A stretch of DNA of 64,000 nucleotides from the IMG/VR virus record IMGVR_UViG_3300040801_004519, positions 69,231-133,230 of that record; one strand, 5' to 3'. This document shows, piece by piece, positions 1,688-58,888 of this stretch. This stretch comes from a virus (Duplodnaviria; Heunggongvirae; Uroviricota; Caudoviricetes). How positions within the stretch are numbered: the stretch's first letter is position 1; every line of letters starts with the position of its first letter. The notes below the pieces were generated by a model. The model was not told the origin of the DNA, searched no databases, and saw nothing but the letters and a program-made list of their open reading frames with translations. Made by a program: the position numbers and the translations under genes.

Positions 1688-2070
1688 ACTGGTACAAGAT
1701 AGCAACGCCACTTGTTGAAGACTTTGAGTCCAGAAATAGGCTCAATTCGCAAATCGAGTCTCTTAAAGAGACATCGATCATACTGGACCATTTGTCAAAG
1801 ATGGTCTTTCAGAGTGGAAGCATCGCCAGAGAGAAGCTGGCTGAAGTTGCTAACGATAAGAAGCTGAGCAGTTTTCCATTCATCGAACAAACGCTCTCTG
1901 AGGCGATCAAGGCTTGTCTGGATAGCCCACACAGGTCTTCTTCTCTTATTAAGAGTGCTGTTTCTGATATAGTTCTAAAGATTGATGATCTAGAGCACCA
2001 ACGACATGAGTTTGTTGAAGGCTTGAATGGAAACAATGACAGATATTGGGGATGGGTAGAAGAGGACTAA
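1684..2070 (+). CDS. hypothetical protein
   Basis: ATGA overlap with the upstream gene (translational coupling); 128 aa. Confidence 0.4.
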   Translation: MNWYKIATPLVEDFESRNRLNSQIESLKETSIILDHLSKMVFQSGSIAREKLAEVANDKKLSSFPFIEQTLSEAIKACLDSPHRSSSLIKSAVSDIVLKIDDLEHQRHEFVEGLNGNNDRYWGWVEED

Positions 2071-2735
2071 CAATGAGTAATATTGAGAAAACCAGCTTGC
2101 CAGAGAAGGTCTCCAAAGAGTATCAGTACGAAGACATCTTCGATATGGCAGATTCCATTAGCGGTGATGATGCCAAGATCGTTCCGCAATGTAAACTTTG
2201 CAACTCAGAACATAGGGCAGAAGCAGAGGAGTATTGGCTACAAAAGAGGCGCAACGTATCGGCAGTCGTCCGATTCCTAAATGATCGCGATGAGTTCATT
2301 ACAGACAAGGCGATTAAGAATCACCTTGAAAATCATTTTATGCCACAGCAGGCAGCAATAAAAGTAAAGAATTACACTGAACGCCTTAAGATGTACAGTG
2401 CTGTCAAAAGAAGCCAACTTACTGATTTAGCACTTCTTCGTGACATTCTAATGAAATCGATTCTTGAGATTGGGTCAGAGGCCGATTCCCTTCCAGTAAT
2501 CGAAAGAGCGAAACTGGTTGAACTCCAGAGCAAATTGATGGCGCAGTTCGTTTCAATCGGTTCTGCTGAAAGAACAATTCAAGAAGATTGGAAGCCAGCA
2601 GACATGATGGTTGAAAAACTTGAAGAGGTAATTACCAATGAGATGGAAAAAGCTGATGATCAGACTAAGGGCGCGTTGGTCCGCTTGATGAATACATTCT
2701 GGAACGGTCTAGAAGGCGAAGCTTTCGAGAGATAA
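2046..2735 (+). CDS. hypothetical protein (CxxC near N-terminus)
   Basis: 229-aa ORF; CKLCNSEH motif; no family recognised. Confidence 0.4.
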   Translation: MGMGRRGLTMSNIEKTSLPEKVSKEYQYEDIFDMADSISGDDAKIVPQCKLCNSEHRAEAEEYWLQKRRNVSAVVRFLNDRDEFITDKAIKNHLENHFMPQQAAIKVKNYTERLKMYSAVKRSQLTDLALLRDILMKSILEIGSEADSLPVIERAKLVELQSKLMAQFVSIGSAERTIQEDWKPADMMVEKLEEVITNEMEKADDQTKGALVRLMNTFWNGLEGEAFER

Positions 2736-2846
2736 CATGAAACAAATAGACACAACAAAGAAGGCAACACCATCGCCCAAGCCCAAAAAGAAGGGATGTG
2801 GGTGCAGTAGGACAAAGAAGAAGCAGAAAAAGAGTAACAAAAGATA

Positions 2847-3830
2847 ATGAATTTTACTTGGACCAAAGCTTCTTCCACGATTGAGTCTGCTTACCACAAG
2901 TTCACTGGCAGAGAACTTAACAAGCATGACTTGCATGATATATTGCGGGCCATCCCGACGTATCGTGCTTTGGCAAGAAGGTTGCAGTCTGATCCAGGAC
3001 GTGTATGCCGTCTCATGTTCGCAGAGAAGAACACGTATTCTTCTTGGCACCACCCCTGCGATGTTTCTGAACTAAGATACTCCTTGTCGTCTGGAGTTCT
3101 CCAGTGGCACGCACCAATGATTCTGTTTTCTCCGAAAACGGCATTGTCTCTTGTCCCAGAATACCCCGTTTGCTTAGAGATCGATAGGCCCGCTGCCGCT
3201 CGCGGCGTAGAACTGGGTGGAGTGCTCCTCCTTCAATCAAGTCGATTGAACCTTCGTAACAGTGTAAAGAGGATTCTCGTGAGAGATTATTTGAGCAAGA
3301 AGCAGTTGCGAGAGATCGAATCCATATCAAGAGAGACATTGGGAAATGTTCCAGTAAATCTTATGACAGGACTTCCAGGCCTCGATCCTGTTCGACAGCG
3401 AGAGATTCGGTTTCGAAGGTTTGCGAGCTTAAATAACGAAGAATCATTAATGCAAGATTCTGTTCCCAACTGGTATGGCAATTTAAAGGTATCTTACGGA
3501 CCTTCTGAAACATTTCACAAAAATACATTGATCGGGGAACAACCAAAACTTCCTGATCCTGATGTTTATTCGCTAAAACGCTCTGATCCGTCAACACCCT
3601 CTAATTTCGAGCGTGGAGACAGGGTTGCGTATCGATATACTAATGTGAGACTGCCTTCCTCTGCGGAAACCCGCGATATTCCAATGACACGATCTATGAC
3701 TCAGCAGCCTCCAACCGGAGTTGTGGTTGGTGTTGACGAAAAACACATTCATGTACGTTGGCACAATGAATCGAAGATTCAGAGGGTACCCGTTCGAGCA
3801 GGCGTTTTCCTTGTAAAGGTTCCTGACTAA
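2847..3830 (+). CDS. hypothetical protein
   Basis: 327-aa ORF; no family recognised. Confidence 0.4.
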   Translation: MNFTWTKASSTIESAYHKFTGRELNKHDLHDILRAIPTYRALARRLQSDPGRVCRLMFAEKNTYSSWHHPCDVSELRYSLSSGVLQWHAPMILFSPKTALSLVPEYPVCLEIDRPAAARGVELGGVLLLQSSRLNLRNSVKRILVRDYLSKKQLREIESISRETLGNVPVNLMTGLPGLDPVRQREIRFRRFASLNNEESLMQDSVPNWYGNLKVSYGPSETFHKNTLIGEQPKLPDPDVYSLKRSDPSTPSNFERGDRVAYRYTNVRLPSSAETRDIPMTRSMTQQPPTGVVVGVDEKHIHVRWHNESKIQRVPVRAGVFLVKVPD

Positions 3831-4357
3831 TGTGGTACGCTAAATTCAATAAATCTATTGAGTCTGGATTAGCCAAGGCCGCTCAAGCTAGACGAACCTC
3901 TTTTCCTCATTTTGCCAAGTCGGCTCTTCGAGCATCGCCTTTCGTACGCAAGATGTTTAGCGCTCATGGAGTGTCATTCACTGAACTTGCGCGACTGGAA
4001 ATTATTGTGGATGACCTTCCCGACTCTTGTTCTGCATTTGACGGTGAAAGAATAGTCATAGATCGAAAGACTGTCGCACAAGGTTATGATGCTGCGATGC
4101 CGTTTCTTATCCACGAACTAATGCACTTCCTGACAGATAAGGCAGAAGATGCAGACTACTTTTCTGATCCAGAAGAAAGAAGGGCGCTGGTTTGGTCTAT
4201 CGCTTATAGGCTCCAGCACGGGGTCGAATTGGATCAAATCGATCAGGAATTCCGTCCACTTGTTGAGCCACACTGTGATTCACCTTCAGAAGCGTCTTTG
4301 ATACTTCTAAGAGCAGCAAGACGAGCCTACAAGCTACTAGGTTTATTAAAGCGATAA
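3830..4357 (+). CDS. hypothetical protein with HExxH motif (possible small zinc metallopeptidase)
   Basis: LIHELMHFL contains an HExxH signature; start overlaps the previous stop (TAATG). Confidence 0.35.
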   Translation: MWYAKFNKSIESGLAKAAQARRTSFPHFAKSALRASPFVRKMFSAHGVSFTELARLEIIVDDLPDSCSAFDGERIVIDRKTVAQGYDAAMPFLIHELMHFLTDKAEDADYFSDPEERRALVWSIAYRLQHGVELDQIDQEFRPLVEPHCDSPSEASLILLRAARRAYKLLGLLKR

Positions 4358-4360
4358 GTC

Positions 4361-4648
4361 TTATCGAGATATCGACTCTGCTGCCTCTGAAAGTTCTTTC
4401 AGAAAAGACTTCTCTGGTTTCCTATTTACCTCAATGAACATGTCAATTAGGTCTTCATACCTCTTACTGGTAGGCGTGTAAAGAGCTATTTCTTCACCAA
4501 GGCTTCCTTTCAGATACTCTATTGCTTCGTTGTGAAAACTTATGATCTTTGCGTCACCTGATCTTGAAGATTGCCAACTAAGATATTCTTCTGCTTCTTC
4601 CTCGAATCGCACGATGAGTGACACTTGATATTTATTTAACTTTCTCAC
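4361..4648 (-). CDS. hypothetical protein (lone minus-strand ORF)
   Basis: 95-aa ORF; AGAGGTG Shine-Dalgarno-like sequence just upstream on the minus strand; divergent from the 4769 gene. Confidence 0.35.
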   Translation of the reverse strand: MRKLNKYQVSLIVRFEEEAEEYLSWQSSRSGDAKIISFHNEAIEYLKGSLGEEIALYTPTSKRYEDLIDMFIEVNRKPEKSFLKELSEAAESISR

Positions 4649-4768: not shown

Positions 4769-6079
4769 ATGAAATTTGAGATCACCGCAAAAGGCTTGTT
4801 GGATGGCATTTCACCCGCGAGAACCGTGTCAACCACTGATGCCAGCAAGGATTTTGCTGGAACCGGAAATCTTGTTCTGGAGGCATCTGGAGAAAAACTT
4901 GTAGTGACTGCTAATGGCGGCAGGCTTGCAGTAAGAGTAAACGTCGAGTTCATTCCACAAACGAATGATTATAAGGGCGTAGAGGGTGGCAGGTGCGTTG
5001 TTAGAGCCGCAGATATTGTTACTGCCTTAGAGTCGTTCCCACATGATGCGATGCTGGTCGTGAGCCTTGGAGATTCACAGGCTAAAACTGCGCCAGAAGA
5101 TGCTGATGAAAAGGAGAAGATGTTCTATGAAGCCCTTGCTGGCAGCGATCTTCAAATCTCTCTGAAATCTGACCCCGATCAGATTCAGACCATGCCAACG
5201 ATCATATCTGAAATTCAGTTCCCAGCCCTGCCTTCTACGCCGAGGCAGTCAGTAACCGTGTCTGCTTCATCGTTTGTGAGAGGCATGAAAAAAGTCCTGT
5301 TTGCAGGTGGATTTATGGAAAGCAAGCCCAAGTTTCTCTATTGGGTCTTACGAGCAGGTAAAGAATCTGTAAGATATGTTGCTGGATCAGGGTCACGATT
5401 TGCAATTTTAGATCAGGAGGGAAATCTTTCCGATGTTTCGGATGATACCGATATCCTGATGCCTGTTGCCCAGAGCAGTATCGTCTTGAAGGCAATATCT
5501 TCAACCTCTGCTGACAATGTTGTTGTAAATCAATATGGAGATAAAATTGAATTTGTTGTAGGACATCTAACATTTATTGCAATGGGCTTGATTGAAGATA
5601 TCAAGTGGATTGACGAAAATAGCATTTACGAGAGAAAAAGCTTGCACCGCTTAGTCCTAGCGAAGAAAGATATTGAATTCGCAATGAAGGGTGTTGTTGC
5701 AGCCGAAAGCGATATCGATAAAAAGAGAAGCGCTATCCATGTTGTAACTTTGTCTCTTGATCCCTCAGCAAGCAAAGTTGTTGTGAGCAGCGACAGGACC
5801 GCCAAGAAGTCCGTTCGAAAAATTGATGTTCTTGCTCATAATGGCCCGAATGATTCAGTTGAGTTCTCAGCGGCAGCAACCCTTTTGCTTGATATTGTTA
5901 AAGAATGTGACTCACAAAACGTGCAGCTTGAAATCGAATCCTCTTCCAAACCCCTCGTTGTGAGAGGCCATGCTTCAAATGATGTAGAAGAACCTGAAAA
6001 GCTCAAGAACAAGCATGACTCAACAGGTGCTACTGAAATGTTTGGTATGCTGATCAGTTCGCGACAAAAATCATCATGA
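4769..6079 (+). CDS. DNA polymerase sliding clamp (beta-clamp/DnaN-like) candidate
   Basis: N-terminus MKFEITAKGLLDGI resembles DnaN starts (MKFTI..LL); repeated domain-start-like segments with G-x-G-x-R-L/F-A-I motifs (ANGGRLAV, GSGSRFAIL) resembling the TDGHRLA/TDSHRLA beta-clamp motif; longer than canonical beta (436 aa). Confidence 0.4.
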   Translation: MKFEITAKGLLDGISPARTVSTTDASKDFAGTGNLVLEASGEKLVVTANGGRLAVRVNVEFIPQTNDYKGVEGGRCVVRAADIVTALESFPHDAMLVVSLGDSQAKTAPEDADEKEKMFYEALAGSDLQISLKSDPDQIQTMPTIISEIQFPALPSTPRQSVTVSASSFVRGMKKVLFAGGFMESKPKFLYWVLRAGKESVRYVAGSGSRFAILDQEGNLSDVSDDTDILMPVAQSSIVLKAISSTSADNVVVNQYGDKIEFVVGHLTFIAMGLIEDIKWIDENSIYERKSLHRLVLAKKDIEFAMKGVVAAESDIDKKRSAIHVVTLSLDPSASKVVVSSDRTAKKSVRKIDVLAHNGPNDSVEFSAAATLLLDIVKECDSQNVQLEIESSSKPLVVRGHASNDVEEPEKLKNKHDSTGATEMFGMLISSRQKSS

Positions 6080-6095
6080 TATTTATTACTTTTAT

Positions 6096-6854
6096 GTGAA
6101 GAACTGGGATATACAGAATAGATATATGAGGAAAGCTAATGACTTGTCGGGCAATAAATATGGTCTTTTGATCGTCAAAAGTTTACAGAAAAGAACTAGT
6201 AAGGATTCATTTTGGAATTGCCTTTGTGATTGTGGAACTTTGTGCAAAGTGAGTGGGTCTCACCTGAGAAGAAGGAAGAACCCAACAAAGAGTTGTGGTT
6301 GTTTAAGGTCAAAGTTTATTGACATCTCAGGAAAGAGATTCGGCTCTCTTGTCGCGTTAGATCATACTTTTCGAAACTATGATGGTCACAGAAAAGCAAT
6401 CTGGCGTTGCAGATGCGATTGCGGAAATGAAACCCAATCAACGTGTTCAAATTTAAAGAGAGGAATATCTACTTCTTGTGGTTGCTCTAGAGTACTACCC
6501 AATAACCTTGCACCTAAGAATCAGTTATTTGGTAGATACAAGAGAGCAGCAGGTAACGCTGAAAGGGCCTTTAGTTTAAGTTTTGAATCATTTTGCGAAA
6601 TGATAGAAATGAGTTGCTTTTATTGCGGATTGGAGCCATCATCTGTCCTGGACCAAACTTCAGGAAGCTGGCACTCTGATTTTCGCTATAACGGGATTGA
6701 TCGTGTTGACAATTCACGAGGTTACATCGATGACAATGTAATACCATGCTGTAGTGCTTGCAATATGGCAAAGGGATTTAGTTCTTTCGAAGATTTCAAT
6801 GAGTGGCTCGATAGAGTCGCGAAGCATAGGTCAGGGGGAACACATGTCTGCTGA
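6096..6854 (+). CDS. HNH endonuclease (homing-endonuclease-like)
   Basis: Cys-rich N-terminal repeats (CLCDCG, CRCDCG) and C-terminal GIDRVDNSRGYIDDNVIPCCSACNMAKG, the HNH_3-type motif. Confidence 0.5.
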   Translation: MKNWDIQNRYMRKANDLSGNKYGLLIVKSLQKRTSKDSFWNCLCDCGTLCKVSGSHLRRRKNPTKSCGCLRSKFIDISGKRFGSLVALDHTFRNYDGHRKAIWRCRCDCGNETQSTCSNLKRGISTSCGCSRVLPNNLAPKNQLFGRYKRAAGNAERAFSLSFESFCEMIEMSCFYCGLEPSSVLDQTSGSWHSDFRYNGIDRVDNSRGYIDDNVIPCCSACNMAKGFSSFEDFNEWLDRVAKHRSGGTHVC

Positions 6855-13953: not shown

Positions 13954-15078
13954 ATGGCCGAGCTTATCGTACAGTCACGTAAAATTGACAAGGTTATTGA
14001 TCATCCCAACGCTGATCGTTTAGATTTAGCCAAAATTGGGGGATGGTCCTGCGCCGTCCCAAAGGGGAGTTATCAAGCTGGTGACCTCATTGTGTATATA
14101 CCACCGGATAGCCTCGTTCCTGAGAGCTTATCAGATGAGTTCGGCTTCACCAAGTATTTGTCAAATGGTCGCGTCCGTGCGCAAAAACTTCGTGGATACC
14201 CTTCTTACGGTGTGATTGTTCCAAATAAATGGAACTTCTCGGAAGGCGAAAACGTTGCTTCTGCCCTTGGAATTACGAAGTATGAGCCTCCAGCAAGAAA
14301 TGTTGGTTCACGATCTGGATCGAGTGGTCACCTTCCAGATCATCCAAAACTTCCGAAGTACACCAGCATCGAGAATCTTCGACACTATGACACAGTGTTT
14401 GAAGATGGCGAGGAAGTGGTTGTTACGGAGAAAATTCATGGTACAAACAGCCGCGTAGCCATGATCGATGGAACTTTGATGGCTGGTTCAAGGCGGCTGC
14501 TTTGGAAGTTCCCAACCAAAAAAGTTAAGAAGGAAGTTTCATTCCTCAAAAGTCTGTTATTGAAGATTCTTGGGAAACCACATCCAACGGTAGATGTCGA
14601 TGATGTTGGTGCTGCCAAGCAAAGCTGGGTATGGTCCCCCGTAACAAATGACAACGTGTTGAATCTCCTTTACTCGAAAGGGTCGAATGGTGGCTCTGAC
14701 ATCATACTCTTCGGTGAAGTTTACGGAAGTTCGGTCCAAAGAGGCGTTTCTTATGGTGAAAAGAACTCGTTAGGTTATCGTGCTTTTGATGCAATGGTGA
14801 ATGGACAATACTTAGATTATGATGATTTTCGTTCACTATGCGATGATTTTGATGTTGAAACCGCGCCCTTGCTCTATCGTGGCCCCTTCTCCCTTGAAAA
14901 GATAGAAGAGCTTTCTCATGGAGATACTACCATCGGAAATGACAAGCACATACGAGAAGGTGTAGTTGTTCGACCAGTATCTGAGAGGCATAGCGATCAA
15001 GTCGGAAGAGTCATAATGAAGTATGTAAGCGACGAATACCTACAAAGCAAAAACATTGGTGATTTTGAAGACAATTAG
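13954..15078 (+). CDS. ATP-dependent RNA ligase, Rnl2/Rnl5-like nucleotidyltransferase with N-terminal extension
   Basis: Motif I EKIHGTN (lysine-adenylate motif in the KIHGTN form seen in T4 Rnl2 and RNA-editing ligases); downstream ILFGEVYG (motif IV-like) and REGVVVRP; about 150 aa N-terminal to motif I as in DraRnl/Rnl5. Confidence 0.6.
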   Translation: MAELIVQSRKIDKVIDHPNADRLDLAKIGGWSCAVPKGSYQAGDLIVYIPPDSLVPESLSDEFGFTKYLSNGRVRAQKLRGYPSYGVIVPNKWNFSEGENVASALGITKYEPPARNVGSRSGSSGHLPDHPKLPKYTSIENLRHYDTVFEDGEEVVVTEKIHGTNSRVAMIDGTLMAGSRRLLWKFPTKKVKKEVSFLKSLLLKILGKPHPTVDVDDVGAAKQSWVWSPVTNDNVLNLLYSKGSNGGSDIILFGEVYGSSVQRGVSYGEKNSLGYRAFDAMVNGQYLDYDDFRSLCDDFDVETAPLLYRGPFSLEKIEELSHGDTTIGNDKHIREGVVVRPVSERHSDQVGRVIMKYVSDEYLQSKNIGDFEDN

Positions 15079-28976: not shown

Positions 28977-29050
28977 GCTTCGGTAAGACTCAATGGTAGA
29001 GCTAGTTTTTCTAAAAAACTTGGTTGCAGGTTCGAATCCTGTCCGAGGCA
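28977..29050 (+). tRNA. tRNA with anticodon CUA (amber-suppressor type); D-arm irregular
   Basis: Acceptor stem GCTTCGG/CCGAGGC (7 bp, one G-U); perfect 5-bp anticodon stem AGTTT/AAACT with loop TTCTAAA (U33, anticodon CUA, A37); T-arm GCAGG-TTCGAAT-CCTGT with canonical GGTTCGAATCC; no encoded CCA; the D-arm folds only with a mismatch and extra nucleotides. Confidence 0.55.
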
Positions 29051-29148
29051 CTTGAACCTCGATTATTTTCAAAGGATAATCGAGGTTCAGTTTCGATTTG
29101 ATCTAAAGTTTTGCAAGCTGGTTAACCGATAATAATATTGTGACTTAG

Positions 29149-30922: not shown

Positions 30923-32980
30923 ATGAACAACAATAATAACAAAGATGTCGAAGTCAATCAAGAAGCGGAAGAGCGGCGAAAAGAGGAGGCCGCAAAAAAC
31001 ATCGATTTCGATTTGCTAAATGGCGGCTCAGGATTCGAAGAAATCAAAGATTTTGGAGACCGAACCACTGTATTGAAAATCATCAAAGAACGAAGGCAAC
31101 GGCTTGCTTCGGCTTCCCAAAAGCTAAAAGAGAAGTTTGTTGGTCTTGATGATATAATTGACCAAATTATTCGGAACATCGAAGTCTGGTATGTAATGCC
31201 AGAAATTGTAGCTCGCCCGGTGATAGTCAATCTTTGGGGAATGACGGGTGTGGGTAAGACTGACTTAGTGCGAACTCTTGTTAGAGAGTTGAAGCTAGGT
31301 TCAACTTTTCATGAGATTCAGCTTTGTCACAATGGATCATCAAGTGGTGGTTCATCCGCATTGCGTGATGAGCTAGGTAAGTCCAATCTTGATCCTGAAC
31401 ATCCTGGAGTTCTTCTTCTTGACGAGATGCAAAGATTTCGTACCGTTGACAACAACGGTGATGAAATGCATGATTACAAGTTTCAGGACTTATGGGCACT
31501 CTTGAGCGATGGACGTTTTACTGGAGACACTGATAGAGACTCTCTAATCAGATTAATTCTGGAAGACATTTATTGGGATTATGGAGTTGTCAAATATAAG
31601 GACGAGGACGAAGACGACGAAGAAGAAGAGGAAAAGTCTAAGGTTGTATACAAGAACGGTTTTCGAAGAGGATATCAAAGCGCTCGTCTCCTAAAAAGAC
31701 AGCTTAGGCTCAAGGAACCGATTAATGAAATCATGACTTGGGACAACCAGCGTAAGCTTCAGGTTGCTACCGAAAAATTTGCAGATGATTCGACATACGA
31801 AGGACTTGACTATTCCAAGCTTCTAATCTTCATCTCAGGCAACTTGGACGAGGCGTACCAAATGGCTGGCGACTGTGAAGATGCAGATCGTGATGCTGAT
31901 GTTCTGCATGCATTCTCGAAACAGATCAATGTCATCGATATTAAAAGGGCATTAACAAAACGATTTAAGCCAGAACAAATAAGCAGATTCGGAAATACTC
32001 ATGTTATCTACCCTTCACTTGATCGCGGAAGCTATGAACACCTAATTCAGCGATCACTTGATCAGATTTCTTCCAAAATGAGTGAACGTCATGGTTTTAA
32101 TATTTCATTCGATGAAAGCGTAAATGTTTTTGTTTACAGGAATGGGGTTTACCCATCTCAGGGTGTTCGTCCGCTCTTCTCCACCATAGCTTCAAAGATT
32201 GAAAATTCAATCCCACAATTCGTCTTGAAAGGGCTGGAAGAGAATGTCTTGAACTTTTCCATCTTCCACAAGGATGAAAAACTGGTTGCAGTTACAGATT
32301 CGGGCACGACTTTGGACAGCCTCGTTTGCAACGGAGACCTTGACAAGATTAAGGAAGGCCGAGACGACGATTCTCGTTCGATGATTGCTGCCCACGAAGC
32401 TGGCCATGCTGTTCTTTATGCAGTGTACTATGGTTATTCGCCAACCGAAGTAACTGCAAGCCTCTCTGGCTGGAATGGAGGTTATGTTGCCCCTCACAAT
32501 TTTAACCAAGAAACGCCTGAAGTTTTGAAGAACAAGATAAGGGTATATCTTGGCGGACGAGCTTCTGAACAAATCTTTTTTGGTGACGGGGTAGTAACAA
32601 CTGGTGGATGGCATGACATAAGCAGCGCGACATCAATCGCATCCTCGATGGTACGTCGTTACGGAATGGATCACACTACTGCAACCGTTCGGTCTGAAAC
32701 TTGGAACAATGCTTCAGAATCTGTGAACTTAAACAGCGAAAAGGTCAACGAGAGGATTGAAGAGATTGTAAACTCTGCCCAAGGAGAAGCCATTGATCAT
32801 CTTAAGGAACACATTCCTCTTCTAAAAGAAGTCGCTAAAAAGTTGTACCATGATGGCCGTATAGAACCGAAGACATTTGCTGACATTTGCAATAATCATG
32901 GTTTGAGTGTTGTTGTTTCCGAGAATGAAAGTATCTCGGTACAAAAATATTTAAAGAAGTTTGAAGAGTTTGTAGGATAA
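30923..32980 (+). CDS. soluble AAA ATPase fused to FtsH-type (M41) zinc metalloprotease domain
   Basis: Walker A GMTGVGKTDLVRTL, Walker B LLLDEMQ; C-terminal AAHEAGHAV (HExxH), LGGRASEQIFFG and TTGGWHDISSATSIASSMVRRYGMD parallel FtsH HEAGHA / GGRAAE / TTGA..D..AT.IA..MV..YGM; no N-terminal transmembrane segment. Confidence 0.6.
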   Translation: MNNNNNKDVEVNQEAEERRKEEAAKNIDFDLLNGGSGFEEIKDFGDRTTVLKIIKERRQRLASASQKLKEKFVGLDDIIDQIIRNIEVWYVMPEIVARPVIVNLWGMTGVGKTDLVRTLVRELKLGSTFHEIQLCHNGSSSGGSSALRDELGKSNLDPEHPGVLLLDEMQRFRTVDNNGDEMHDYKFQDLWALLSDGRFTGDTDRDSLIRLILEDIYWDYGVVKYKDEDEDDEEEEEKSKVVYKNGFRRGYQSARLLKRQLRLKEPINEIMTWDNQRKLQVATEKFADDSTYEGLDYSKLLIFISGNLDEAYQMAGDCEDADRDADVLHAFSKQINVIDIKRALTKRFKPEQISRFGNTHVIYPSLDRGSYEHLIQRSLDQISSKMSERHGFNISFDESVNVFVYRNGVYPSQGVRPLFSTIASKIENSIPQFVLKGLEENVLNFSIFHKDEKLVAVTDSGTTLDSLVCNGDLDKIKEGRDDDSRSMIAAHEAGHAVLYAVYYGYSPTEVTASLSGWNGGYVAPHNFNQETPEVLKNKIRVYLGGRASEQIFFGDGVVTTGGWHDISSATSIASSMVRRYGMDHTTATVRSETWNNASESVNLNSEKVNERIEEIVNSAQGEAIDHLKEHIPLLKEVAKKLYHDGRIEPKTFADICNNHGLSVVVSENESISVQKYLKKFEEFVG

Positions 32981-35518: not shown

Positions 35519-36721
35519 TTGCCACCCGTTCCCATTCAACAGAAGAAAGAAAAGACATTGACGAAGTTTTTTAAAGGTCTTGGTTTCCCCGGAAGCTTGA
35601 TCGTCATCGCCATCCTGCTTATCGGATTCCTCACCGTCGCCTATCTGGCGGTAACCCCCTCTCGGATTAAAGGTAACCAAATTGGAGTCCTTGAGACTTG
35701 GTGGGGCGGTGTCCACGAAGAGCCAAGGGGGCCAGGGATGCACTTCCTATTTCCAGGAATTGCCATGGACCTCAAGTCTTACTCCCTTCAGCCAAGAGTC
35801 TTTGTGATGAACGACATTCCCGGTGATGTCGAAGAATCTAAAGGTCGAGAACTGGATTCATATGAGGTTCAGTCCCGAGAGGGGCAGACGATGAACATCA
35901 GCTTCAGCGTTCGTTGGAAAATCAATCCCGACCAGATCATTCAGTTGCACAAAGAATTCCGCAGTGATGGCATCACGGAGAATGATCTGATTATTGAGGA
36001 AAGATTGATCCGCCCGCAGTCCATGCGGATCATTAAAGATGCTGCAACTAGACGCGAGGCCATCGACGCATACTCTGGAGAAGGCCTTGTCTCACTTCAA
36101 GCAGAAATTCAAAGTGAGCTTTCTTCAAAGGAAGGCGAACTCTACAACAGTGGCATCATTGTTGAGAACTTTGTGATTGAGGGAATCAAGCTTGACCCAG
36201 AGTATATCGGTGAAATCCGCGCTCGCCAAGTTGCAACGCAGAAAGAGCTTCGAGCAAAAGAGGAAGAGCGTGCTGCTCTTGCTGAGGCCCAGAAGGCTAA
36301 TGCCGAAGCACAAGCTGATTACGAGAGGGCCGTTGTTGAAGCCGAGCGAGACAAAGCAGTTGGTATTTTGAGGGCAGAACAAGACCAGCAGAAACAAGTA
36401 TTGGCTGCTGAGGCATTGAAGGAAAAGCTTGTCCTCGAAGCTACTGGTCAAAAAGAGGCAGACCTTCTTAAGGCACAGGGTATTCTGGCTCTTGGTCAAG
36501 CAGAAGCAGAGGCTAAGAAATTACAACTTGAAGCATTCGCAGTTGAAGGAGCAGATGCTTTTGTTCAAGTTGAAGTGGCAAAGGCTATGGCAGAAGCATT
36601 CAAGAATATCGATGGGTATCTGCCCGAAGATATGAAGATCAACTTGCTTAGCCAAAGCTTTATGGATTCTATCAAGTCGATTGTCAACCCACAGGCATCA
36701 AACACAGAAGAGAGTAAGTGA
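35519..36721 (+). CDS. SPFH/band-7 family membrane protein (HflK/HflC/flotillin-like)
   Basis: N-terminal TM (LIVIAILLIGFLTVAYLAV), band-7-like core, then a long Ala/Glu/Lys/Gln-rich coiled-coil tail typical of HflK/C and flotillins. Confidence 0.6.
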   Translation: MPPVPIQQKKEKTLTKFFKGLGFPGSLIVIAILLIGFLTVAYLAVTPSRIKGNQIGVLETWWGGVHEEPRGPGMHFLFPGIAMDLKSYSLQPRVFVMNDIPGDVEESKGRELDSYEVQSREGQTMNISFSVRWKINPDQIIQLHKEFRSDGITENDLIIEERLIRPQSMRIIKDAATRREAIDAYSGEGLVSLQAEIQSELSSKEGELYNSGIIVENFVIEGIKLDPEYIGEIRARQVATQKELRAKEEERAALAEAQKANAEAQADYERAVVEAERDKAVGILRAEQDQQKQVLAAEALKEKLVLEATGQKEADLLKAQGILALGQAEAEAKKLQLEAFAVEGADAFVQVEVAKAMAEAFKNIDGYLPEDMKINLLSQSFMDSIKSIVNPQASNTEESK

Positions 36722-49473: not shown

Positions 49474-49514
49474 CAACAAGAGAGGCGTGCCAGGGGCACG
49501 CCTCTCTTGTTGTT
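49472..49514. terminator. bidirectional rho-independent terminator (perfect 19-bp stem)
   Basis: AACAACAAGAGAGGCGTGC-CAGGG-GCACGCCTCTCTTGTTGTT, exactly between the convergent + and - blocks. Confidence 0.7.
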
Positions 49515-49528
49515 TGACATAGTGTTAA

Positions 49529-49879
49529 TTATTTCTTAGCTCTAGAGCATCCACAGCCTTTCTTCTTTTTTGTGCTTGCAGAACCAAGCCTGACACCAGA
49601 CTGATTTGCCTGTTTTGTTCCGATTGGCTTGGACGCTTTTGGCGATGTACCGCCCTCAATAAAGCTTTTCCCAAACGGACACTCAAAGTCTACCTCGTTG
49701 TTGGGTAACACATAGAGTGAAGATTGAGACTTCCTCCACTCTCTACCTCCAACCCGATCTCTACATGTGTTGCAATGTGCTTCACTTCTACAGTGAAAGC
49801 TTCTAATGAATTCAGGTTTCTGTTTTGGCTCGCTCATAGAGTTATCTTTCTCATTTATTCTCTTCTTCTCCTTCAGCAA
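49529..49879 (-). CDS. small basic Cys-rich protein
   Basis: 116 aa; CRSEAHCNTC ... FECPFG ... GCGC; overlaps the 3' end of the giant gene by 29 nt. Confidence 0.35.
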   Translation of the reverse strand: MLKEKKRINEKDNSMSEPKQKPEFIRSFHCRSEAHCNTCRDRVGGREWRKSQSSLYVLPNNEVDFECPFGKSFIEGGTSPKASKPIGTKQANQSGVRLGSASTKKKKGCGCSRAKK

Positions 49880-52800
49880 GGAGAGCTTCTATATCATCGG
49901 CATTCCGCATCATCTTTGCCAAAAGTTTAGGTGATGACCCGTTCCATATGCCACTGTTGACCCTGCCGTTATTATCAACATAGAAGAACCTGACTTTGCC
50001 ATCTCCAATTATTGTGGCACTCGGATTTGAGGGGCTAATAGACATCCTAAAATCCATGATAAAGTCTTCTGGATACGGCATTCTTATCGAGCCATCTTTT
50101 GGAAGGCTTTCTATGTCTCCAGCTATGAAGATAGGAGTGCTTCCCTTCTCGCTGTTCAAGTATTCAGCCATTGTTGGAGAGCCGACGACCCCGCTAGGAA
50201 TGTATTTCATAAACAAGAGTGAATCATCTGATACGTAGAATACAAATGTTTCATCTGTCTTGTCGTCATAGACGACATCTGCTAATCCACTTCCCTTGAT
50301 ACCTATTCCAGTTTTCCATGTGAAGCCACCATCCATGCTATAGAAGTGCTCGATAGTTGCAGAGGTTCTGCTTAACGGCTCCTCTTCGTCGCCTTTTGCC
50401 CGCCCGCAGCGACCATCAAGCTCTTCATGTTCAATTTCATGCTTTTCTTCATCGAAGATATCAGGCTGACTCTCGGATATTGTTCCAATAGCATCCCCAT
50501 TACACATGCTACAGTTCATCCTAAAGATACCATTGGGAGGACAAACGTCATGGCATCCATCAGCCTTCTTGAAAAGAGTCCATTTGTGTTCTCGACTAGC
50601 AAGAATCCAGTAGTCTCTTTCCTTGTATAAAGTCCACTTTTCTTTATCCTTTGCTTTCCACACTGCATAACCAGCATATTTATCGCGATCTTCGAACTCT
50701 GGATTTCCGTCTCTATCTTCACCCACCTTAACTGGAACCTGCCCTGGTTCAAGCCCTTCAAGCTCAAAAGCTCCTGAAAATGTAGAGCATGGACATCTTT
50801 CATCAATGATGCCAGACACATTCAAAGTTATATCTTTAATGTCACAATATTCCGTTAACTCGTCGTCTCTATCTCTTATGGGCTGACCCTTGGGCGTAAA
50901 TTCATCGATGTTCTCGCCTGTATACCGCAGAGGGTCAAAATTAGGATGAGAAGCTCCCCCGCTACCTCTTGAGCCTCGCTTCCAAACTCTAACAATACCT
51001 TTCTGATCAACATAAGAATGTATTGCTTGACCCGATTCAAAACCAAGGGATTCTCCATTATAACCAGTTCCATCTGGGTTCATTCCTATATATCTAGGAA
51101 CTAGTGTTGGCTCTTTATACGATGATCTTTCTCTAGTAGCGAGAACTTCATCATGCTCTATTTCTCCAGCAATTACATATGAAGAAGTCATTCTCAGATC
51201 AATACCATCTTGGCTGAACTGTTCAAGATGATAATCATTTGGTTCATCAGGTTTGAAGTACTGAGGTCTTTCATACTTTACAAATGCATCGAGTGATATG
51301 AGCTTATTTGTGTCAATTCGTTTCACGCATGTTGATACAAAATTTCCTCTGTCTCCTGATTCCTCTGAAGAAAGCTCTCCTCTGATGTTTACACCATGAG
51401 TTCTTTTGAAGTACAATATAATACTGTTACTTTTGTAATCAGGAATAGCTAACGGCGACGTAAGGTTTTCCCAATTTACTGTTCGTACGATAGATTTATG
51501 GTCTTCCCATGTTTTCCCTAAATCGCGGGAGACCAAAACGCTTATGTCTGAATTCTTTTGATAACATACATCTGAAACACTGGACTCTTCGAGCATTGTG
51601 TTTTCAAAATACTTTGGTTTATTGCATGACCTAAAACCCTCAGTTGGCAGCCAACAATGCTGTGTATCTATTTGAGCACTATCCCAGTGTGATCCATAAA
51701 ATAGCACATATTCTGTACCATCCAAGTCCGTCATAATAACCTCTACGGTCCACCTTCCCTCTTCCTCGATTACCGAAACTTCAACAGGAAGCAGAAGCAT
51801 TACTGGTTTTTCACAGTTATAATCACAAGCAACAGCACTTACCCTTATCGCGGTTTGTCCTGTCCACTTGGTAGAGTCGTCACAGTCTCTGATAACGCAA
51901 ATAGGACCAAGAGTTCTTGTATCAAAAACAAGCTTGCCCTGTGGATCATCCAACTCTTCGTCATCTTCTTCGCTCTTTACCTTATCTTCAGTTTGACATC
52001 CGTGACAGTATCGAGCATACTTGCCTTCTGTAATGATGTTCGAAAGGTCAATGGTGAAGTGATCATGTCTTCTAGTCCCGACATCTTTGCAATTGAAGTT
52101 GTATAGTTCTCTGTCACCACAACCTATGCTGCTGCTGCTTTCAGAACTAAAGCTGCTGCAAGACTGCGAGCTTTGGTCACTAAATCCTCCACTGGATTCA
52201 TCCGAAGTCAGACCGTCGCTAAGGCCACCACTTGTTTCTGGGTCAGTGCTGAAGCCGCCGCTGCTGTCGTCGCCGTCGCCAGTGCCTCCACCGCCACCGC
52301 CGCCTCCTCCACCACCGCCGCCACCGCCGCCACCGCCCCCTCCACCCTTGTTGTGGACAGCAATGCCTCCTGCGAAGAAAGTATTGTCTCCGTCAACGGT
52401 AAGATTAAACACCGTAGCCTCCTCAGCTTCCTCAACAGACAAGATCATGGTTGGAATGAGGTCTGCATCAAACCGGTATACTATTGTTTCTGGTACAAGG
52501 TACTTAGCCTTGGTATATCCGTGATCTGTTAAAAACGGGTGATCAGGAGAAACTTGAAGAGTCTCGTTGCTTGTTTGTATTTTTATTGTAGAAGATGAAA
52601 GTTTTGAAAATGTCTTAGAAACCTTTCCCTTACTTACCTTCCCTTCCTCATTGTGGGTGTAGACTTCATCGCCAACCCGGATTTTTTCAATATCAACATC
52701 TCCATTGAGGGTTGAGACTTTTGTTTTAGCGACGAAACAACCTCCACCTCCACCCCCACCGCCACCACCGCCGCCTCCCCCTCCACCTTTATTGTGGACA

Positions 52801-55598
52801 GCAACTTTGTTTACGAAATAGGTATTTGGCTCTTCTACCGTGAGATTGTAAACCGTATGGCACTTTCCATATCTTCTACTTCCGACAACGAAATCTTCAA
52901 CAAGCTCTCCGTTTTCATAAGTCCATATACTATCTCCAGGGATCAGCCTTTTTGCTGACTTAAATTCACCATCTCCAATGTAAAATGGGTGGTGTGCCGT
53001 CGTTTTGATTGTTGTTGATCCAGTTTCAATTACATAATGACCCATTGACAAGTGTTCGATAACTTCCTTAACTTGGGAGTTTATCATTGAACCGTCGTTA
53101 TTAAATGAAATTACAGAGTTTCTTCTATCTATCTGGCTAATTGGCCATTGTCTTCCATCCTCCAGTGTTACTAACGAATCTCCCGTAAAACAGCCTCCAT
53201 CTTTATTGTGGACCGCAGTTCCGTTTGCAATGAATGTTTTGTTTGGGCCAACAGTTAAGTTGTAAACGACGACCCACTCTTCAGGAAACTCTTCTTCGAT
53301 CTGATCAATCTTTGCTGGAACAAGTTTTTCGTCATGATACCGGAAGATTGTATCCCCAGCCTCAAGAAGCTCTGCTGCACGGTATTTCCCGCTTCCCATG
53401 TAGAATGGATGCTCTCCAGTCGTTGTTATTTTTTCACCATCAACGTGGAGTATAACCAACGAATCAACTGCCGTTGAATATGTATTGGTTACTTCGCCTT
53501 CGCAGATATTGCCATCAGGATCAAACGAAACAACCTTGCTTCCAGCAGCAAGGGACTCGATAGGTGCGTATTTTCCGTTTGCAAGTAAGACTGGGGTGCC
53601 AGAGATGAAGCAGCCCGATGAGTCTCCACTATCAGAACCAGACGGACAAACCACCTTACATGGGTCACGATCAGGGCAATCCCGTTCCTCATCTGACTGG
53701 CTTGAATTACTTGATATCAGACCATCATCATCATCGTCGTCAGGAATAGTTGACAGGCTACTATCACTGCTGCTACTAGACCAGCATTCGTCATCGGCAA
53801 TCCTGTACTCTTCATCAGCGTAAAAAACAAGAAGTCTTCCCTGAGCGTCAAACGTCACAGAATAATCCCTTGCTCCAAAAGCATACTTGATGTAGTCTTT
53901 TGGCTCCATGACGATAGCTTTAGCAGTTGCTATTTTCGGTGGTTTTACCACCTTGCCATCTTTATTTATCCATTCTCCCCCAATCTCAATTCTGAAGGGT
54001 GAAACTCGATTCACTTCGATTTTTAGTTCACCATCATTCTTTCCCTTGTTAACTGGGACATTATCTAAGACCCACTCGCTCGCCTCGTTGTTCTTTGTCC
54101 ACGAAGCTCTTGCATCGCAAATATCCTTTTCCCCACGGAATTTAAAGTGAAGCACGGCCTTTTCAGCCCCAAGCTCGTTGTCATCAGTTGTTGTGAACTT
54201 AAGAAATCTAATGAACTTGTTCTGTAGATCATCTCCACCTAAGCTCTGTATTCCATCTTCTTCTGAAATTTCCAGAGTTATCTCGTCATATATCTCATCA
54301 GGGTCTGCAAGGCCATGTTCTATCATCGCGCCATCAACCATGATCGTTTTTCCATTTTCGTATCCTGGTTGACTGGCGATTCTTTGAATACCTGAAACCG
54401 TCAAACTTCGGTCTTCTATTGAGTCTAGTGCGTATGGCAAGTGCCCGGCATGTGGGATATCCACCATAGAATTTAACGATGCAGCAAGTCTTGTCTCCTC
54501 AAGATGGTTAAAGAAAACGAGATTTGAGTTCCCTCTTCTTCTCCAAGATTTCGCGAACTCCAGAGGAAGAGATGGCTCATCGCCATCAGTGAAGGAAAAG
54601 GTGTTAATGCGGAATTGGTCAGTCACCGCGTTTGCCGCTGATCCTACAATTCTCCTACACGACGAGCAGCCAGAACTTACTCTCCCCAACCCTTCTACAA
54701 GCCTTGGTGGTTCCTCACTTGATTCCGATCCGATTTCTTCTGCGCGAAGATCAGGGTTAACGTATCCACGCATATCGTGAAAGTCTCTATTGCATGCTTT
54801 CCACGTAATGCCGAGTCTTCTGAATCTAGCAGCCGCGCCTCGTTCTTCAGCAGTTTCTCCTGAATAATTTGTTCCTGAACCAAAGCAATTGTTCTCAATT
54901 GGTAGGTTCATCGCAAATATTGTATGAACAAGCTTACCTTTGCCTGCGAACTTGTCACATTGATCCTTATCAGTAAACTCTACAGCGACTCGAAGAAACG
55001 CCTTGCTGAACACTCTGCTGTTCTGCTTTTCTCCTGGTGCTCCCGTAGGTTCTATTCTGTAATCGTAGTTTGGTCCACATGTGGCCCTTACTGCACCACC
55101 GTGAATAATTATCTCGATGTAAGCAGCACTGGGTTTTCGAGGTGGCTCTCCACTTTTGCTCTTCATGCACATGCATGTGTCGCCTTCATAAAAGCACCCC
55201 TCGTCAAGCTCTGGAAGATATGCTTCTCTAGTGTAACCACCTTCTACCTTGATTGATGCCGCCCAACGGCAAAAGGGTACCCTTACATCGTCTCCGTCGC
55301 CTTGCAAGTCAGTGCATGACATAAACTTGTTTCCACCATCAGTCCTTCGAAGCGTGTATTTCCCTCCAATATCAACCTTGTCAATATTTACCACGCCCGA
55401 TCCGCCTGATCCACAAGACGGGACACATAAATCTACACCACGCCCGACTGCTTTTTCCGCGTACACTTCAAAAAAGGATGGAACACAGTCTAGACAGTGA
55501 AAACACGGAGTATTATCATGACAATCACCACATGGCTGGTCTAAGTCTCTTAGCCAGCTTTCACAATCTGAAGGTCTAGATGGAATTCGTTTCGCCAC
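49851..55598 (-). CDS. giant (1915 aa) Cys-rich protein with four tandem Hint (intein/Hedgehog-like) domains separated by poly-Gly linkers
   Basis: Single uninterrupted ORF. Four repeats each start G-C-F-x-x-G/K-T (CFISGTPVLL, CFTGDSLVTL, CFVAKTKVST, and a fourth), carry an intein block-B-like T-x-x-H (TTTGEHPFY, TTAHHPFY, VSPDHPFL) and end in block-G-like AVHNK (TAVHNKDGG, VAVHNKGGGG, IAVHNKGGGG). The +1 residue after HN is Lys/Gly, not Cys/Ser/Thr. Poly-Gly runs of 16 and 21 residues, a poly-Asp run, and N- and C-terminal Cys-rich regions. Confidence 0.7.
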   Translation of the reverse strand: MAKRIPSRPSDCESWLRDLDQPCGDCHDNTPCFHCLDCVPSFFEVYAEKAVGRGVDLCVPSCGSGGSGVVNIDKVDIGGKYTLRRTDGGNKFMSCTDLQGDGDDVRVPFCRWAASIKVEGGYTREAYLPELDEGCFYEGDTCMCMKSKSGEPPRKPSAAYIEIIIHGGAVRATCGPNYDYRIEPTGAPGEKQNSRVFSKAFLRVAVEFTDKDQCDKFAGKGKLVHTIFAMNLPIENNCFGSGTNYSGETAEERGAAARFRRLGITWKACNRDFHDMRGYVNPDLRAEEIGSESSEEPPRLVEGLGRVSSGCSSCRRIVGSAANAVTDQFRINTFSFTDGDEPSLPLEFAKSWRRRGNSNLVFFNHLEETRLAASLNSMVDIPHAGHLPYALDSIEDRSLTVSGIQRIASQPGYENGKTIMVDGAMIEHGLADPDEIYDEITLEISEEDGIQSLGGDDLQNKFIRFLKFTTTDDNELGAEKAVLHFKFRGEKDICDARASWTKNNEASEWVLDNVPVNKGKNDGELKIEVNRVSPFRIEIGGEWINKDGKVVKPPKIATAKAIVMEPKDYIKYAFGARDYSVTFDAQGRLLVFYADEEYRIADDECWSSSSSDSSLSTIPDDDDDDGLISSNSSQSDEERDCPDRDPCKVVCPSGSDSGDSSGCFISGTPVLLANGKYAPIESLAAGSKVVSFDPDGNICEGEVTNTYSTAVDSLVILHVDGEKITTTGEHPFYMGSGKYRAAELLEAGDTIFRYHDEKLVPAKIDQIEEEFPEEWVVVYNLTVGPNKTFIANGTAVHNKDGGCFTGDSLVTLEDGRQWPISQIDRRNSVISFNNDGSMINSQVKEVIEHLSMGHYVIETGSTTIKTTAHHPFYIGDGEFKSAKRLIPGDSIWTYENGELVEDFVVGSRRYGKCHTVYNLTVEEPNTYFVNKVAVHNKGGGGGGGGGGGGGGGGCFVAKTKVSTLNGDVDIEKIRVGDEVYTHNEEGKVSKGKVSKTFSKLSSSTIKIQTSNETLQVSPDHPFLTDHGYTKAKYLVPETIVYRFDADLIPTMILSVEEAEEATVFNLTVDGDNTFFAGGIAVHNKGGGGGGGGGGGGGGGGGGGGGTGDGDDSSGGFSTDPETSGGLSDGLTSDESSGGFSDQSSQSCSSFSSESSSSIGCGDRELYNFNCKDVGTRRHDHFTIDLSNIITEGKYARYCHGCQTEDKVKSEEDDEELDDPQGKLVFDTRTLGPICVIRDCDDSTKWTGQTAIRVSAVACDYNCEKPVMLLLPVEVSVIEEEGRWTVEVIMTDLDGTEYVLFYGSHWDSAQIDTQHCWLPTEGFRSCNKPKYFENTMLEESSVSDVCYQKNSDISVLVSRDLGKTWEDHKSIVRTVNWENLTSPLAIPDYKSNSIILYFKRTHGVNIRGELSSEESGDRGNFVSTCVKRIDTNKLISLDAFVKYERPQYFKPDEPNDYHLEQFSQDGIDLRMTSSYVIAGEIEHDEVLATRERSSYKEPTLVPRYIGMNPDGTGYNGESLGFESGQAIHSYVDQKGIVRVWKRGSRGSGGASHPNFDPLRYTGENIDEFTPKGQPIRDRDDELTEYCDIKDITLNVSGIIDERCPCSTFSGAFELEGLEPGQVPVKVGEDRDGNPEFEDRDKYAGYAVWKAKDKEKWTLYKERDYWILASREHKWTLFKKADGCHDVCPPNGIFRMNCSMCNGDAIGTISESQPDIFDEEKHEIEHEELDGRCGRAKGDEEEPLSRTSATIEHFYSMDGGFTWKTGIGIKGSGLADVVYDDKTDETFVFYVSDDSLLFMKYIPSGVVGSPTMAEYLNSEKGSTPIFIAGDIESLPKDGSIRMPYPEDFIMDFRMSISPSNPSATIIGDGKVRFFYVDNNGRVNSGIWNGSSPKLLAKMMRNADDIEALLAEGEEENK
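52285..52347 (-). repeat. GGN-codon simple repeat encoding a 21-residue poly-Gly linker
   Basis: CCNCC repeats on the + strand; coding low complexity inside the giant gene. Confidence 0.8.
52741..52788 (-). repeat. GGN-codon simple repeat encoding a 16-residue poly-Gly linker
   Basis: as above. Confidence 0.8.
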
Positions 55599-55627
55599 AG
55601 TCTATTTATCGGCTTCGAAGCTCATCG

Positions 55628-58180: not shown

Positions 58181-58888
58181 TCATATTCGGCTTAGAATCA
58201 TTAGTGATGCTGGAGACTGTATTCCCTCCGCAATTGATTCTACTTCGAAATCAGCAGATGCTAATTGGGCCAGCTTTCTGAGGGAGTTTGGTGAAAAGTA
58301 GTGTATATGACCGTCAAAATGCTTGGTGACCCTGCGTCTCGTTGGAACTTCTATAAAAACCTTATTCCTAGAGATTGAACAACACTTTCTCAAAAATTCA
58401 TGAACGTTGTCAACATGCTCAAGCACATGCCAAGCGAACACATGGTCAAATAATTCTCCTTCTATATCAGTTTCAAGGAAGTCAGTTTGAAGTGTTTCAA
58501 AACCAAGTCTCTCAGACTCTTCTACAAGTCTCTGATCTAGCTCAAGGCATGTAACAGACTCAACATCATTGATAACTTCTCGCGCGAATGTTCCTGCTCC
58601 AGAACCTATGTCCAAGCATTTGTCGTTGTCGCGAAGGAATTTCAATACCGCCTTGCGTCGTTTGTTGACTATGTTCGACCTTGCATCGTGAAAGGCTTGA
58701 GAAACTTTCCCTGCTGAGCTAAATTCCCTTTTTACTCTCTGCGATGTCGAAAGATTTCTATATTGCTCAGCGTGAAATTTAGATGCATCTCCATTGAAAG
58801 GGCGATACGTGTGACTGCAAGCATGGCAAAAGAATGATGATCTTTCCTTTGGAGTGGTTTTATCATGACAAATTGGACAAAGCATCAT
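58181..58888 (-). CDS. class I SAM-dependent methyltransferase with N-terminal zinc ribbon
   Basis: CPICHD...CHACSH zinc ribbon; CLDIGSGAGTF motif I; acidic motif II LELDQRL. Confidence 0.65.
   Translation of the reverse strand: MMLCPICHDKTTPKERSSFFCHACSHTYRPFNGDASKFHAEQYRNLSTSQRVKREFSSAGKVSQAFHDARSNIVNKRRKAVLKFLRDNDKCLDIGSGAGTFAREVINDVESVTCLELDQRLVEESERLGFETLQTDFLETDIEGELFDHVFAWHVLEHVDNVHEFLRKCCSISRNKVFIEVPTRRRVTKHFDGHIHYFSPNSLRKLAQLASADFEVESIAEGIQSPASLMILSRI

Follow-up and report, generated by a model that had tools for sequence, protein, structure and literature searches.

Three tandem intein-like Hint domains among glycine tracts in a loop of a predicted propeller protein from a probable jumbo phage

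What might a row of intein-like domains that lack the residue required for splicing be doing inside one very large phage protein? The question arises from a tailed-virus genome (IMG/VR record IMGVR_UViG_3300040801_004519), of which we analyzed a 64,000-nucleotide stretch, positions 69,231 to 133,230 of the record, hereafter called the window. Its minus strand holds an uninterrupted open reading frame (ORF) of 1915 codons with a GTG start at 49851-55598. The position and length agree with our original prediction, which was made from the letters alone and pictured a Cys-rich protein with four tandem Hint domains, possibly an autoprocessing polyprotein that releases fragments or delivers an effector. 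Here we report that the protein contains three Hint-family domains, closest to A-type bacterial intein-like (BIL) domains, and we propose, at a probability of roughly 0.55 and from sequence comparison, that it is a propeller protein with one expanded loop whose Gly-rich core holds the three as self-excising units of the form G↓C...H-N↓K-Gn (arrows mark domain boundaries).

The identity of the repeats was established by profile searches. A Pfam scan matched three stretches with each of the models PT-HINT (E = 5.6e-30; 104.8 bits, cut-off 27.7), Hint (E = 9e-16; 58.5 bits, cut-off 29.7), Intein_splicing (E = 1.6e-15; 57.7 bits, cut-off 35.8) and Vint (2.7e-12), with Hint_2 matching too, and the TIGR models for intein N and C termini matched in the NCBIfam scan. 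By sequence, the closest solved structure was the BIL domain 2lwy from Clostridium thermocellum (E = 3.4e-11), with mini-inteins next. The predicted Hint, BIL or pretoxin-HINT type is thus borne out, for three domains (Table 1) instead of four: the terminal ...VHN occurs three times, and the candidate fourth domain, at the GCF of amino acid (aa) 134, gave no Hint profile match. Each module of about 135 aa begins, as foreseen, in a G-C-F context with its position-1 nucleophile (Cys663, Cys803 and Cys954), carries the block-B motif T-x-x-H or, in the third, S-x-x-H (TGEH, TAHH and SPDH) and ends in AVHN, and no endonuclease was found in the Pfam scan. The expectation that Lys or Gly, and never Cys, Ser or Thr, would follow the terminal Asn was right about the absent nucleophile and wrong about Gly, which occurs there in 0/3 domains; the +1 residues are Lys799, Lys937 and Lys1084. 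Without a +1 Cys, Ser or Thr, canonical class 1 splicing is excluded, in agreement with the prediction, and because Cys1, the block-B His and the terminal His-Asn are intact, N-terminal thioester formation and Asn cyclization would be the expected chemistry, as had also been suggested. BIL domains have no +1 nucleophile and undergo mainly N- and C-terminal cleavage, with ligation in some cases (PMC7664689, PMC7765530), and those of A-type have a conserved C-terminal His-Asn (PMC7765530).

The three copies share only 29-35% pairwise identity in protein and 42-48% in DNA; despite this divergence, all three retain Cys1, the block-B T/S-x-x-H and the terminal His-Asn. The same organization was found in cellular genomes. 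A scan with the Hint alignment, covering one genome per species, detected at least 79 loci in Verrucomicrobiota, Planctomycetota, Lentisphaerota, Syntrophales, Nitrospirota, Legionella, Riflebacteria and DPANN archaea, with one to five head-to-tail copies per ORF (mode 3) as counted with a hidden Markov model of the phage domains. These arrays follow a strict grammar, with Lys at +1 in 206 of 207 junctions and Gly at -1 in 200 of 206 domains, interdomain linkers of K-G1-7, and, after the last HNK, Gly runs of up to 11 (usually 2-8) followed by a stretch rich in Gly and Ser. The phage array fits this definition, with G↓C and HN↓K three times each and junctions of K-D-G-G, K-G16 and K-G21 after Hint 1, 2 and 3, respectively. 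Across the 206 aligned domains, Cys1, the block-B Thr and His, and the terminal His-Asn show 100% conservation, and retention of every catalytic residue in these relatives as well as in three phage copies that are about 30% identical points to selection for catalytic activity. Identity between phage and cellular domains is 32-42%, as close as the phage domains are to each other; Hint 1 and 2 are similar to the cellular "second-position" type and Hint 3 to an archaeal type, so the array is not a recent internal triplication. In the cellular proteins (for example, L028:2467-5541, L073:2467-4731 and L075:2509-5733), a signal peptide is followed by the Hint array, a linker, a transmembrane helix and two Tim44-like domains, the first Hint domain being preceded by (A/G)RGGGG straight after the signal peptide. 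In the searchable literature, we found nothing on tandem Hint or BIL arrays, on Tim44 combined with Hint, on a +1 Lys rule or on Lys or isopeptide chemistry of Hint domains. The arrangement had been called highly unusual, which the cellular loci contradict for the tandem Hint plus Lys/oligo-Gly layout; what is unusual is that a phage gene carries the cassette, that it lies at this position and that its Gly tracts are about twice as long as the longest elsewhere.

Homology shows that the flanks of the array are the two halves of one conserved family; modeling indicates that they form a single six-bladed sialidase- or lectin-like propeller unit. An exhaustive HMMER search with aa 1160-1915 returned 26 relatives besides an identical 581-aa fragment (P0001), which is found on a 1978-bp Joint Genome Institute contig without gene context; word-indexed searches with the full protein, with its first 642 aa and with an alignment of 12 C-domain sequences yielded, among the matches listed, only P0001. 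No record of the exact full-length protein was found, and IMG/VR lacked a 39-mer taken from the gene. None of the 26 relatives has a Hint domain, and blastp detected collinear similarity to both flanks, at aa ~340-596 and ~1170-1915. Group A relatives (P0002, P0004, P0005, P0008, P0009, P0011 and P0017) have the order N-domain, Ser/Pro/Gly low-complexity linker, Cys-rich module and C-domain, and in 5/7 of them (P0002, P0004, P0005, P0008 and P0017) the linker contains runs of G5-G11 at the same point as the phage insert. In group B (e.g., P0012), the N-domain motif FDxxGRxFVFYED is followed, about 20 residues on, by the Asp-box strand ISCLVSPDxGxTW. The corresponding motifs of the phage protein lie at aa 583-595 (FDAQGRLLVFYAD, the final strand motif of the N-domain) and 1352-1364, from which an insertion of ~756 residues follows, comprising a linker, the three Hint domains, another linker and the Cys-rich module. 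In an AF2 (AlphaFold2) model of P0012[590-1228] built from 12 sequences (predicted local distance difference test [pLDDT] score of 85; predicted template-modeling [pTM] score of 0.89), the two insert-flanking motifs form strands 259-265 and 290-296 with a 24-residue loop between them. Both the modeled fold and the Asp-boxes fit a six-bladed sialidase-like or lectin propeller; the phage protein has two such boxes, SRDLGKTW at aa 1357-1364 (51507-51530) and SMDGGFTW at aa 1754-1761 (50316-50339), and a Foldseek search of BFVD gave only weak propeller similarities (TM ~0.25).

Some receptor-binding enzymes of phages, endosialidases for instance, have propellers of this type. The host protein of the array is probably virion or tail associated and of a sugar-binding kind, and a receptor-binding role is plausible. 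Group B relatives are located on IMG/VR viral contigs of 170-500 kb, P0012 being ORF L007:7370-11056 on a 498-kb contig, and in L003 the homolog comes after a Phage_tube_2 tail tube gene, amid ORFs of 1000-1200 aa and glycosyltransferases. Searches of phage structural families (PHROG) gave no match for the host protein or its L003 homolog. The suggestion that the flanks are independent polyprotein products or an effector did not survive these comparisons, as the Hint-less relatives have the halves contiguous in one propeller unit; nor did effector delivery, as the Pfam and NCBIfam scans found no toxin domain in the protein and neighboring ORFs had no immunity-type Pfam match.

The Gly tracts that set the array apart were predicted exactly in length, at 16 and 21 residues. 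Separation of the domains by poly-Gly holds for Hint 2 and 3, with G16 between them, and fails for Hint 1 and 2, which are joined only by K-D-G-G; likewise, the poly-Asp run that had been placed among the domains exists as D6 (aa 620-625, window 53724-53741) and lies 37 residues upstream of the array. Both tracts are encoded by a mix of GGT, GGA, GGG and GGC codons, which marks them as a protein-level feature and not a homopolymer artifact. The AVHNK-polyGly junctions of Hint 3/Gly21 (52300-52363) and Hint 2/Gly16 (52741-52804) form a 64-nucleotide direct repeat of 86% identity, in contrast to the Hint bodies, which are less than 50% identical in DNA; this suggests recombination or gene conversion at (GGN)n junctions, a process that might likewise account for the differences in copy number among the cellular arrays. 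A G-G-F motif was observed in the Ser-rich stretch after the last Gly run in both settings, as SSGGF...SSGGF in the phage protein (aa 1106-1140, 52180-52283) and as KGGGGF(R/H) with a Ser-rich continuation in cellular proteins; it is weak evidence that part of the linker may have travelled together with the cassette.

According to our preferred reading, a propeller loop was expanded into a long flexible insert with the Hint array in its Gly-rich core. An N-S acyl shift would create a thioester at each Gly-Cys junction, and Asn cyclization, through a succinimide, would cut each Asn-Lys bond, such that the three domains would be removed from the precursor. Two outcomes are then about equally likely. 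The freed Lys amine might attack the thioester in a BIL-type ligation without a side-chain nucleophile, giving ...SSG-KDGG-K-G16-K-G21-TGDG..., a Lys/Gly tether of ~45 residues like the poly-Gly linkers of group A; alternatively, no ligation would take place, and an N fragment (aa 1-662) and a C fragment starting at Lys1084 would stay associated through the propeller they share. Reports on BIL domains favor mostly cleavage, and the invariance of the Lys speaks for its participation in ligation or Asn cyclization.

Several points weigh against this proposal. The Hint fold of the array rests on its match to the solved BIL domain 2lwy and to inteins, the placement of the two flanking strands in the same blade follows from secondary structure and the position of the Asp-box, and the virion or tail role is drawn from the gene neighborhood and fold of distant relatives. 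Processing itself and the fate of the ends are inferred, and as no close homolog carries the array, purifying selection on the phage copies is not measurable. A simple cleavage model does not account for the invariant +1 Lys. Finally, in cellular proteins only about 5 residues separate the signal peptide from the first Hint domain; this is not easily reconciled with insert removal as the only purpose and suggests that the thioester may have some other function.

One such function would be a Hedgehog-like transfer, with the thioester attacked neither by water nor by the protein's own Lys but by a nucleophile from outside. Lipids, sugars, amines of peptidoglycan or a Lys in a different protein of the virion or host could serve, and the N fragment would become covalently attached to that partner. 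The G-C-F tripeptide is the same context as the Hedgehog cleavage site, for whose processing Gly-Cys chemistry is described (PMC3207474), and genes for polysaccharide modification are found upstream of the ORF on its own strand; moreover, the cellular arrays are extracytoplasmic with nearly no N-flank, which suggests that thioester chemistry itself may be the point. However, the Hint domains are not followed by any region for recognizing a sterol or adduct, every copy retains the His-Asn for C-terminal cleavage that Hog domains do without, and a single transfer needs no three tandem thioester sites. We consider this explanation unlikely. The idea that the Hint domains are catalytically silent and remain part of the finished protein, where they would act as spacers or binding modules along a flexible poly-Gly string, is distinctly unlikely: certain Hint-fold domains are inactive, poly-Gly tracts would suit such a tether, and autoprocessing of the array is deduced from sequence, but every catalytic residue has been kept in the divergent phage copies and is invariant in the related domains.

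Still less probable is the polyprotein or pretoxin reading, in which the domains would release fragments or a C-terminal effector or toxin. Pretoxin-HINT is indeed the top Pfam model, and cleavage is chemically possible at up to six junctions; against this, the C-terminal region is a conserved propeller part that is contiguous with the N-domain in Hint-less homologs, neither Pfam nor NCBIfam detected a toxin domain, nothing marks the small downstream ORF, which has no Pfam match, as an immunity gene, and there is no Rhs, CdiA or secretion context. As low-complexity tracts can misassemble and the only independent contig (L002) spans just aa 1308-1915, a chimeric contig or a frame fused through (GGN)n also deserves mention, though we give it very little credence: no stop codon interrupts the frame over 5.7 kb, the domains are collinear with those of homologs on both sides, and the mixed-codon tracts join complete Hint domains in frame with the K-Gn-C grammar seen in the 79 loci.

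A broader version of the self-excision proposal may be put forward tentatively, as a rather doubtful extension. The G↓C...HN↓K-Gn Hint domains might constitute a previously unrecognized self-excising class dedicated to oligo-Gly linkers, with the +1 Lys acting as the ligating nucleophile, either through its epsilon-amine to form a Gly-N-epsilon-Lys isopeptide or through its freed alpha-amine, so that only a Gly/Lys tether would remain once the domains had gone. Recombination at the (GGN)n tracts on either side might let the cassette multiply, be lost and move between genes, including from cellular Tim44-type membrane proteins to a phage protein of receptor-binding type. If the domains are active, the phage protein would represent an internal, multicopy Hint autoprocessing module in a sialidase- or lectin-type propeller protein and would give phages a new means of maturing or reshaping a protein of this kind. 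Of more general interest is the cassette, with its strict -1 Gly, +1 Lys, oligo-Gly junctions and 1-5 copies from Verrucomicrobiota to DPANN archaea. Its invariant Lys raises the biochemical question of amine-mediated ligation, possibly with an isopeptide bond, and a Hint domain able to operate with nothing but Gly on either side would be of use in protein engineering, as it would leave a traceless Gly-linker scar.

The layout of the ORF and the neighboring genes are given in Table 1. The start of the ORF is uncertain, with an in-frame TAG two codons 5' of the GTG and an ATG ahead of the TAG (55602-55625, minus strand). The label Cys-rich applies to two clusters, at aa 12-314 and 1147-1345, and hardly to the whole, in which Cys content is modest (50 residues, 2.6%). 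For aa 1-339, no relatives were found in PDB or Pfam or in the homolog searches.

Table 1. Segments of the 1915-codon ORF and other annotated genes of the window
Feature	Amino acids	Window positions	Strand	Basis or remarks
Whole ORF	1-1915	49851-55598	minus	1915 aa, GTG start; start codon uncertain
N-terminal extension	1-339	54582-55598	minus	19 Cys; homologs align only from ~aa 333 on
Conserved N-domain	340-596	53811-54581	minus	blastp to P0002, P0004, P0005, P0009, P0012; tblastn to viral loci
Ser/Asp-rich linker 1	597-662	53613-53810	minus	Sequence; ends ...SSG ahead of Cys663
Hint domain 1	663-798	53205-53612	minus	G↓CF...TGEH...AVHN↓K; profile matches
Hint domain 2	803-936	52791-53192	minus	G↓CF...TAHH...AVHN↓K; junction K-D-G-G before domain
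Gly16 tract	938-953	52740-52787	minus	Mixed GGN codons
Hint domain 3	954-1083	52350-52739	minus	G↓CF...SPDH...AVHN↓K; profile matches
Gly21 tract	1085-1105	52284-52346	minus	Mixed GGN codons
Gly/Ser/Asp-rich linker 2	1106-1159	52122-52283	minus	Sequence; low pLDDT in AF2 model
Cys-rich beta module	1160-1340	51579-52121	minus	Common to group A homologs, absent from group B
Conserved propeller C-domain (predicted)	1341-1915	49854-51578	minus	Homolog alignments, AF2, BNR hint in Pfam scan
RNA ligase		13954-15078
FtsH-like AAA + M41 protease		30923-32980
SPFH/Band 7		35519-36721
Ro60/TROVE with vWA		40052-41767
PcfJ-like		41883-43943
WGR-PARP		43953-45251
ATP-dependent DNA ligase		46789-48105
Polysaccharide-modification cluster		58181-61752	minus	S-adenosylmethionine methyltransferase, polysaccharide pyruvyl transferase, capsule-synthesis-like protein, GT8; upstream of ORF

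The source virus is a probable jumbo phage. A gene repertoire like the Ro60, PARP, FtsH and ligase genes of the window has been described for jumbo phages (PMC7824862), and the window also encodes PHROG-only families; an Rfam scan detected tRNA only, with no Y RNA beside Ro60. No similar DNA was found among 50,697 phage records, and tblastn against the same records detected Hint domains only as single copies, in three Ruminococcus phages. Viral contigs scanned with the Hint alignment, or with the C-terminal motif, gave no match, and a metagenome scan gave one 1.3-kb contig. On contigs of 250-500 kb, homologs of the host protein belong to a conserved series of three or four ORFs, each 900-2080 aa long (L003:4360-18440, L005:4440-18351 and L007:1121-18464); the series lies downstream of a tail tube gene, and its ORFs in these three contigs had no Pfam or PHROG match.

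Other features of the window were also observed. A small ORF of 116 aa (49529-49879, minus strand) overlaps the 3' end of the large ORF by 29 nucleotides; its product is rich in Cys and His (HCRSEAHCNTC..., CPFGKS), has a basic tail, KKKKGCGCSRAKK, and gave no Pfam match. Cumulative GC skew turns at ~49500-50000, exactly at the switch of coding strand from plus (1-49.5 kb) to minus (49.5-64 kb). A tRNA with a CUA anticodon, of the amber suppressor type, is encoded at 28977-29051 on the plus strand, and four pairs of same-frame ORFs are split by a single TAG (6754-7968/7975-8286, 35030-35473/35519-36721, 48298-49128/49138-49473 and 55919-56857/55628-55915). TAG read-through or late-gene recoding is possible and is not established by these pairs, whose number is, by our estimate, about that expected by chance.

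How, then, does the phage array compare with known systems? Class 1 mini-inteins such as gp41-1 and NpuDnaB belong to the same fold family and likewise have blocks A, B and G, but the phage domains are in tandem, have Lys in place of the +1 Cys, Ser or Thr at all three junctions and sit in a low-complexity variable linker, with neither the conserved functional insertion site nor the homing endonuclease of such inteins. Hedgehog Hog/Hint domains have the G-C-F cleavage context and thioester chemistry in common with them, but the phage domains end in His-Asn followed by Lys-Gly, are not C-terminal and lack the sterol-recognition region that in Hog accompanies G-C-F in place of terminal Asn cleavage. 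Pretoxin-HINT (PF07591) is the best-scoring Pfam model and is likewise an autoproteolytic Hint domain without splicing; however, the phage protein has neither the downstream toxin domain and adjacent immunity gene of pretoxins nor an Rhs, CdiA or secretion setting. In tail spikes and endosialidases with the self-cleaving Peptidase_S74 chaperone, a phage sialidase-like or receptor-binding protein is similarly combined with an autocleaving module, though one of unrelated fold and chemistry that is C-terminal rather than internal, and the Pfam scan of the large protein found no S74 match.

The Hint domains of the Ruminococcus phages are ordinary BIL/PT-HINT domains and not the same cassette, since they occur singly, with Lys at -1 and Ala or Ser at +1. 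In one of these phages, NatCom_3870 (L001, PV036417.1), three neighboring genes (1314-3008, 3576-4373 and 5236-6789) each contain one such domain, with near-identical N-junctions (..TMK↓CFVAGTL) and +1 Ala/Ser, a pattern that resembles a polymorphic cassette system in this gut phage.

A-type BIL domains, reportedly described by Amitai in 2003 and Dassa in 2004, with C. thermocellum BIL4 said to be PDB 2lwy, are the nearest known kind. The phage domains resemble them as ~135-aa mini Hint domains with no endonuclease, with Cys1, the block-B T-x-x-H and a C-terminal His-Asn, and in siting, which is a variable region and not a conserved active site, Hint being absent from all 26 homologs of the host protein. 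AVHN↓K in 3/3 domains agrees with the definition of the A-type by a C-terminal His-Asn without a +1 nucleophile (PMC7765530), and membership of the HINT superfamily is evident from both the profile matches and Cys1 with block-B T-x-x-H. Unlike A-type BIL domains, those of the phage cassette strictly have Gly at -1 and a +1 Lys that leads into oligo-Gly, form head-to-tail arrays and lie inside a phage propeller protein. The cellular tandem-Hint/Tim44 proteins come closer still in having the same Hint subfamily, the G↓C...VHN↓K-Gn pattern, tandem copies and a Gly run followed by a linker rich in Gly and Ser, but they have a signal peptide, a transmembrane helix and Tim44-like domains, whereas the phage host protein is unrelated, and their Gly runs reach at most 11 residues versus 16 and 21 in the phage protein. 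Altogether, the domains are of an already known kind, BIL-type Hint, and the novel aspects are the strict tandem cassette, for which no description was found in the searchable literature, and its insertion into the propeller of a probable jumbo phage at a point where relatives have a plain poly-Gly linker.

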